64,000 nt of DNA. Origin: Escherichia coli. Lineage in GTDB: Bacteria > Pseudomonadota > Gammaproteobacteria > Enterobacterales > Enterobacteriaceae. Under the pieces are notes generated by a model. It worked only from the letters and a program-made list of their open reading frames with translations. It ran no database searches and was not told the origin of the DNA. The translations under genes were made by a program, and so were the position numbers. The first letter of the stretch is position 1. Each line of letters begins with the position of its first letter. The stretch lies in assembly GCF_003334815.1 (NCBI RefSeq), contig NZ_QOWO01000003.1; one strand, 5' to 3'. Of this stretch, positions 50,872 to 51,059 are shown in pieces.

Positions 50872-50947
50872 GCGGGAATAGCTCAGTTGGTAGAGCACGA
50901 CCTTGCCAAGGTCGGGGTCGCGAGTTCGAGTCTCGTTTCCCGCTCCA
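50872..50947 (+). tRNA. glyV: tRNA-Gly (GCC)
   Basis: GCGGGAATAGCTCAGTTGGTAGAGCACGACCTTGCCAAGGTCGGGGTCGCGAGTTCGAGTCTCGTTTCCCGCTCCA, 76 nt, anticodon GCC, encoded CCA. Confidence 0.95.
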
Positions 50948-50983
50948 AAATTTGAAAAGTGCTGCAAAGCACAGACCACCCAA

Positions 50984-51059
50984 GCGGGAATAGCTCAGTT
51001 GGTAGAGCACGACCTTGCCAAGGTCGGGGTCGCGAGTTCGAGTCTCGTTTCCCGCTCCA
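50984..51059 (+). tRNA. glyX: tRNA-Gly (GCC), identical second copy
   Basis: Exact 76-nt duplicate of the upstream tRNA after a 36-nt spacer. Confidence 0.95.

Follow-up and report, generated by a model that had tools for sequence, protein, structure and literature searches.

A two-copy allele of the glyV-X-Y tRNA-Gly(GCC) array in a K-12-like Escherichia coli genome

Introduction

The window analysed here is a 64,000-nt stretch of contig NZ_QOWO01000003.1 from an Escherichia coli assembly (GCF_003334815.1). It carries two tandem tRNA-Gly(GCC) genes at a place where an initial annotation, made from the sequence alone, gave three for K-12. The annotation offered three explanations: a recombinational deletion of one unit, a non-K-12 strain, or the collapse of a tandem repeat during assembly. 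The locus raises the question of how an array of two genes came to stand here, and whether the missing gene was lost in the cell or in the assembly.

Organisation of the array and its surroundings

Both tRNA genes were detected by ARAGORN, which found three tRNAs in the whole window, and each scored 69.1 bits against the Rfam tRNA family RF00005, for which the gathering score is 29. The cloverleaf with the anticodon GCC was confirmed for both genes with the same two tools. The 76-nt copies are identical to each other, which is far beyond chance, and by exact string identity they also match glyV, glyX and glyY of K-12. The two exact copies 36 nt apart that the initial annotation described were therefore recovered by ARAGORN, Rfam and string comparison, with the coordinates exact. 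The spacer between the genes holds a small GUGC/GCAC hairpin in the predicted fold. Tandem Repeats Finder did not call the array in its scan of the window, most likely because 1.7 periods fall under its score threshold.

Alignment to annotated K-12, the DnaA boxes and the synteny in other species place the array between orn, whose TAA stop codon lies at 50659-50661, and datA/queG. The locus is the glyV-X-Y operon with a different copy number. The coordinates of the features are given in Table 1.

Table 1. Features of the glyV-X-Y locus in the window (positions are those of the 64,000-nt stretch).
Feature	Position	Strand	Basis
orn (oligoribonuclease), conserved upstream neighbour	50116..50661	+	mapped from NC_000913.3 via 100% identical alignment
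Putative glyV-X-Y promoter	50787..50823	+	read from sequence; identical to K-12
tRNA-Gly(GCC) copy 1, glyV counterpart	50872..50947	+	ARAGORN, Rfam, K-12 identity
36-nt spacer AAATTTGAAAAGTGCTGCAAAGCACAGACCACCCAA, equal to K-12 spacer 1 (glyV-glyX)	50948..50983	+	alignment, string comparison
tRNA-Gly(GCC) copy 2, glyX/glyY fusion product	50984..51059	+	ARAGORN, Rfam, simulated crossover
datA DnaA-box cluster; boxes 51078-51086, 51145-51153, 51307-51315, 51319-51327 (minus strand)	51078..51327		pattern search
Probable operon attenuator/terminator: hairpin 51085-51108, then GGTTTTTGTTG	51085..51119	+	fold and literature
yjeV, small ORF overlapping the end of queG	51293-51346	+	NC_000913.3 mapping
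queG (epoxyqueuosine reductase), conserved downstream neighbour	51329..52468	-	mapped from NC_000913.3, offset verified

The putative promoter comprises TTGCAG (50787-50792), a 16-nt spacer and TATAAT (50809-50814), followed by the G+C-rich GCGCCTCCC. A consensus promoter scan made no call for glyV-X-Y in the window, because the -35 hexamer fits the consensus at 3 of 6 positions only. The existence of a glyV-X-Y promoter has been demonstrated experimentally (PMC10950094), and the exact -35 and -10 hexamers assigned here are candidates for it. On the other side of the array, the attenuator hairpin has a predicted folding energy of -9.4 kcal/mol (RNAfold) and is followed by a T-run; the terminator scan of the window did not call it. 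The predicted attenuator overlaps the first DnaA box, and an overlap of the glyV-X-Y terminator/attenuator with DnaA box 1 of datA has been reported (PMC10950094). The DnaA box at 51145-51153 is a perfect TTATCCACA. Near-consensus DnaA boxes number 26 in the whole window, against 12.5 expected by chance, and four of them cluster at datA.

The window is identical to K-12 from 51062 to 56465, and the promoter-like region, both tRNA genes, the attenuator hairpin and the DnaA boxes all match K-12 exactly. The datA boxes lie 111 bp nearer the tRNA promoter than in K-12. According to published work, glyV-X-Y is followed directly by datA, and transcription that reads through from the tRNA promoter controls the binding of IHF there (PMC10950094).

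Comparison with K-12 and the register of the loss

The three genes that the initial annotation named, glyV, glyX and glyY, are present in K-12 MG1655 (NC_000913.3 and NZ_CP010440), with spacers of 36 and 35 nt. The window departs from this layout in having two copies and spacer 1 only. The 35-nt spacer 2 of K-12, AAATTTGAAAGTGCTGTAAGGCACAGACCACCCAA, is absent from it. The two spacers differ by one indel and two substitutions; the string GAAAGTGCTGTAAGGCAC is specific to spacer 2, and its W-type variant is GAAAGTGCTGTAAAGCAC. The absent segment measures 111 bp and corresponds to spacer 2 together with one tRNA. The distance between the orn stop codon and the end of queG is expected to be 668 bp with two copies and 779 bp with three.

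The K-12 units glyX and glyY form a perfect direct repeat of 93 bp (the last 15 nt of the spacer, the tRNA of 76 nt and the 2 nt after it) with a period of 111 bp, while the glyV and glyX units have 86 bp in common with a period of 112 bp. The missing segment is exactly one glyX-glyY period. When one period was removed from K-12 in silico in the glyX/glyY register, the window sequence was obtained base for base; a simulated deletion in the glyV/glyX register did not give it. The deletion endpoints fall inside the 93-bp perfect repeat, the flanks are 100% identical to K-12 with no other change, and directly 3′ of the second tRNA stands the flank that in K-12 comes after glyY. The 95-nt junction of the two-copy array is A-GCACAGACCACCCAA + tRNA + AAT. 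The claim that one unit is missing is upheld in this precise form, and both the structure of the allele and the register of the loss can be read directly from the comparison.

The best-supported cause, to which we assign a probability of roughly 60%, is that unequal recombination or replication slippage removed one repeat unit. The recombinational deletion proposed in the initial annotation agrees with the removal of one exact period, with the 93-bp perfect repeat, and with recurrent losses and gains in complete genomes (see below). The ancestral array would have contained three identical tRNA genes, the glyX and glyY units lying in the 93-bp perfect repeat 111 bp apart. Misalignment of these two repeats, whether by replication slippage, sister-strand misalignment or unequal homologous exchange, would remove exactly one unit with no scar and would leave a tRNA - spacer 1 - tRNA product such as the window has. 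We infer both the occurrence of the loss in the cell and its pathway from these features. RecA-independent routes dominate for repeats so short and so close to each other.

Copy number in complete E. coli genomes

The frequency of such alleles was determined in a sample of 5,426 complete E. coli genomes, of which 5,407 fall into the categories given here. An initial BLAST table contained many K-12 matches labelled as having two tRNAs, which turned out to be partial alignments to three-copy loci (e.g., MG1655_insertion). Because a tandem repeat confounds ordinary BLAST tables, short constructs were used, consisting of the array with 100-150-nt flanks, and the E-value cut-offs were so strict that a match had to be a single alignment over the full length.

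A contiguous three-copy array was found in 3,689 genomes. A further 1,606 genomes have a 121-bp palindromic insert directly after spacer 1; two tRNAs only are present in 27 of these, and the rest (about 1,579) have three. Contiguous two-copy arrays occur in 81 genomes, four-copy arrays in 16 and one-copy arrays in 15 (0.3%). Three tRNAs are thus present in about 97% of complete E. coli genomes and two tRNAs in at least 108 (2.0%). The initial annotation had named two-copy reference strains as what would refute it: K-12 is not such a strain, and about 2% of the other complete genomes are.

The 81 contiguous two-copy genomes belong to unrelated strains, in at least 15 haplotype score classes, and include ATCC 25922, ST648, PCN033, Xuzhou21, several STEC and KO11FL. 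Some retain spacer 1 (488-bp match) and others spacer 2 (487-bp match). Spacer 2 has a lineage variant in W-like genomes, which shows that AVS0973 lost the glyV/glyX unit. The recurrence of two-copy arrays in other genomes is a direct observation, and their scattered distribution with either spacer, together with the four-copy genomes, points to repeated losses in both registers, as well as gains, in E. coli.

Some two-copy alleles look reproducible or inherited. Both assemblies of strain 2013C-3277 agree on two copies, and eight clonal OkiPb isolates agree with one another. ST648 and WB61, which come from separate projects, have a rare haplotype in common and are both two-copy; this pair supports inheritance on a small scale. 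That about 20 genomes of one short-haplotype class form a single clade fixed for two copies was considered and rejected, as the haplotype is common to no more than ST648 and WB61 when 4.5 kb are compared. At the same time, variant copy numbers are partly clustered by sequencing project (AVS, TUM and GF strains). Because of this clustering, and because one-copy K-12 laboratory strains come from single submitters, some of the deposited copy-number variants are likely to be artefacts, and two-copy arrays may in nature be less frequent than 2%. Only one tRNA-Gly gene is found in MC1061 (NZ_CP195014, locus L006, 1003-1078), OV2 and three K-12-like records, the other K-12 records having three. Such clustering by submitter points to an artefact of the pipeline or to a common stock in which two genes were really lost.

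The 121-bp palindromic element, which has a predicted fold of -37 kcal/mol and is represented by E. coli Sanji (locus L004, 985-1105), does not occur in the window array. It resembles an ERIC/IRU repeat and may be of this type; no further copies of it were found in the window or in the fetched 50-kb loci. In one record, CP157104.1 (locus L148), the distance between queG and orn is that of an insert-type array with three tRNAs, but only two exact tRNA copies were found, so one tRNA copy probably has a point change.

Genomic background and relatives of the window

Apart from the array, five differences separate the 64-kb window from NC_000913.3, namely one inserted nucleotide at 4143 and substitutions at 7896, 56466, 60085 and 60664. 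At 60085 it has the base of non-K-12 strains. Neither the change at 56466 nor that at 60664 occurs in the aligned comparison genomes K-12, 23CRST014 and KO11FL, and no complete E. coli genome in the collection has both of these private SNPs or could serve as a long-read sibling. The window comes from a K-12-like natural isolate, not from K-12 itself. The suggestion of a non-K-12 strain is correct as a description, in view of the five other differences, but it explains nothing about the array: the window is 99.99% identical to MG1655 and about 97% of E. coli genomes have three copies, for which reason non-K-12 status was rejected as the cause.

An exact-protein look-up with the HflK L76F variant (see below) led to a 160-kb draft contig, DABDQN010000004.1 (GCA_012802195.1), which equals positions 50439-64000 of the window at 100.000% identity over 13.6 kb, the two-copy array included. 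This makes the isolate behind the contig either the source of the window or a clonal sibling of it. The spacer-1 two-copy allele is also found on near-identical backgrounds in the complete genomes 23CRST014, GF124.3 and GF31 and in a K-12-like segment of KO11FL.

Several other features of this background were recorded. The substitution at 60664 changes codon 76 of hflK (HflK L76F). An identical L76F protein occurs on several backgrounds with flanking DNA about 0.7% diverged (loci L137-L143), and it would follow that the substitution is recurrent or was moved by recombination. At pheU (tRNA-Phe, 21063-21138, minus strand), the window contains the degraded integrase remnant of K-12 (20700-21140), and in the near-identical strain 23CRST014 pheU is accompanied by an intact integrase and by an island with copies of IS1 and IS3 (locus L008, 43136-50000). 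In KO11FL (NC_017660), positions 24025-34730 are identical to the window and to K-12 over window positions 40690-51397. Its K-12-type alleles run from epmA to amiB and adjoin the frd deletion, on the other side of which a remnant of frdA is joined to the lateral-flagella gene cluster. E. coli W, the parent of KO11FL, has W-type alleles and three tRNAs. These observations would fit if KO11FL had received the frd deletion from a donor of K-12 type that was already two-copy. The collection contains one KO11 assembly with the frd-deletion junction.

Assembly collapse as an alternative

It is possible, though we consider it less probable than a real loss, that the isolate truly has three copies and that a short-read assembler dropped one unit. 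Plausible routes to such an error can be drawn. A de Bruijn graph built with k below about 95 would hold spacers 1 and 2 as nearly identical parallel paths that connect identical tRNA nodes. If these paths were merged, or if contigs were joined via the shared 93-bp block, the result would be tRNA - spacer 1 - tRNA, and what is left of spacer 2 would be too short a fragment to survive as a contig. The product would have the same sequence as that of a real deletion. Moreover, the exact counterpart of the window over 13.6 kb is itself a draft WGS contig, no complete genome with the two private SNPs provides long-read confirmation, the ends of eight draft contigs fall within the array or next to it, and copy-number variants, the one-copy K-12 laboratory strains included, cluster by submitter.

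The behaviour of comparable drafts nevertheless argues against collapse. Those that were inspected break at the array, and none visibly collapses a known three-copy array. Such breaks were seen in drafts of contiguous three-copy lineages (loci L152-L155, L139 and L141-L143). The contigs of L152 and L153 end exactly where spacers 1 and 2 diverge, and those of L154 and L155, with the same accession style as the GCA_012802195.1 contig, end in or after the last tRNA. The glyV-X-Y array is a systematic contig-break point in short-read drafts. In a true two-copy array, the longest repeat is shorter (about 78 bp) and assemblers should bridge it more readily; real two-copy arrays should therefore be overrepresented among spanning contigs and 64-kb windows. 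Further evidence against collapse comes from the two-copy arrays of complete genomes, from the agreement of re-assemblies and related isolates, and from the presence of the spacer-1 allele on near-identical backgrounds (23CRST014, GF124.3, GF31 and the KO11FL segment).

One unrelated draft, L138, is also two-copy, which could hint at a draft-specific bias. The draft look-up ranks contigs with the most flanking DNA first and in this way favours array-spanning contigs, which is why L138 was found. Membership of L138 in the confirmed two-copy lineage of PCN033 and DLL7555 was ruled out by its identity of 98.0-98.3%.

Copy number in other Enterobacterales and the ancestral state

A pattern scan with one genome per species revealed at least 120 loci with tandem tRNA-Gly(GCC) genes. 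Among the matches listed, 88 arrays are anchored by orn and/or queG and are not cut by the locus edge. These matches do not contain Salmonella, E. albertii or E. fergusonii, and the inference of the ancestral state concerns the other Enterobacterales. Three copies are the most common number among the 88 anchored arrays listed (61 arrays), followed by two (16), seven (8), four (2) and five copies (1). When the arrays are anchored by both orn and queG, three copies are present in 47 of 54 among the matches listed. In most of the 88 anchored arrays listed orn adjoins the array, and the adjacency of queG is conserved in Enterobacterales. The orn-array-queG arrangement is therefore old, and three copies were probably ancestral in Enterobacterales. 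The copy number of the array does change in the course of evolution.

Seven-copy arrays linked to orn were found in a record titled Enterobacter ludwigii EnVs2 (L113), in Mixta tenebrionis (L073) and in Aeromonas (L019, L035, L036, L058, L063 and L084). All six spacers of the Mixta tenebrionis array are 27 nt long, which suggests that it was recently amplified.

It is extremely unlikely that two copies are the older state, kept in the lineage of the window, and that K-12 and most E. coli gained a third by duplication. Native two-copy arrays do exist (16 of the 88 anchored arrays among the matches listed), for example in Enterobacter cloacae, Kluyvera cryocrescens, Citrobacter werkmanii and a Kosakonia species. 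However, the window is almost identical to three-copy K-12 over 64 kb and sits among three-copy genomes, and the two-copy genomes are scattered and retain different spacers. Spacers 1 and 2, moreover, both occur across E. coli phylogroups, with lineage variants; as they differ and yet cross phylogroups, the three-unit array is old. Given the near-identical K-12 flanks and the three-copy majority in E. coli and other Enterobacterales, the two copies are therefore derived.

Expected consequences of the two-copy allele

E. coli has four tRNA-Gly(GCC) genes, including the unlinked glyW, and the two-copy allele reduces them to three. The expected effects of one tRNA-Gly(GCC) gene fewer and of a tRNA promoter 111 bp nearer datA are small. 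There is no sign that these changes matter: the allele is rare and scattered, and gains occur too.

We regard it as very unlikely that variants with one to four copies tune the coupling of tRNA-operon transcription to the DnaA-inactivating datA, the two-copy allele being a functional regulatory variant. If this were true, the lack of 111 bp and one processing unit would alter read-through to the IHF site of datA and shift the timing of initiation. Least likely of all is that the loss was favoured, through a lower tRNA-Gly(GCC) dosage or through a promoter brought 111 bp nearer datA with altered read-through and initiation control: datA does lie directly downstream and overexpression of the tRNA array has been reported to alter ciprofloxacin tolerance (PMC8811037), but the frequency of 2%, the scatter, the presence of both losses and gains and the lack of a large fixed clade fit neutral or slightly deleterious instability.

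The genes, the operon and tandem-repeat instability are all well known, and general biology is little affected by the present case. The practical implications are that a glyV-X-Y copy number read from an assembly should be trusted only when the reads back it, and that array length is worth checking in work on datA regulation in non-K-12 strains, since the array promoter feeds datA.

Relation to known systems

The nearest known system is the glyV-glyX-glyY operon of K-12 (tRNA-Gly3, GCC), with which the window shares the position, the tRNA, the upstream region, spacer 1, the attenuator and datA. The K-12 operon has three genes, whereas the window has two and lacks spacer 2 and one tRNA (111 bp). 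The collapse of tandem repeats in short-read or hybrid assemblies would be expected to yield the same product as the window, but the inspected drafts break instead.

The finding is a rare, recurrent and ordinary tandem-repeat copy-number variant or, less probably, an error of the draft assembly, and the same kind of event is already known. It conforms to the polymorphism of tandem tRNA arrays, in which one period is lost without a scar between perfect direct repeats and both losses and gains occur in the population. The classical case is the tandem pair tyrT-tyrV of E. coli, of which one gene is lost.

More generally, the number of tRNA genes varies within E. coli (PMC4539685), and tRNA gene sets change by duplication and deletion (PMC7661048). 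Structural variants close to this operon have been reported under ciprofloxacin stress (PMC8811037). McDonald et al. (2015) stated that every E. coli has the array in either three or four copies (PMC4539685). This range is too narrow; the census adds to it records with two copies (2.0%) and with one copy (0.3%).
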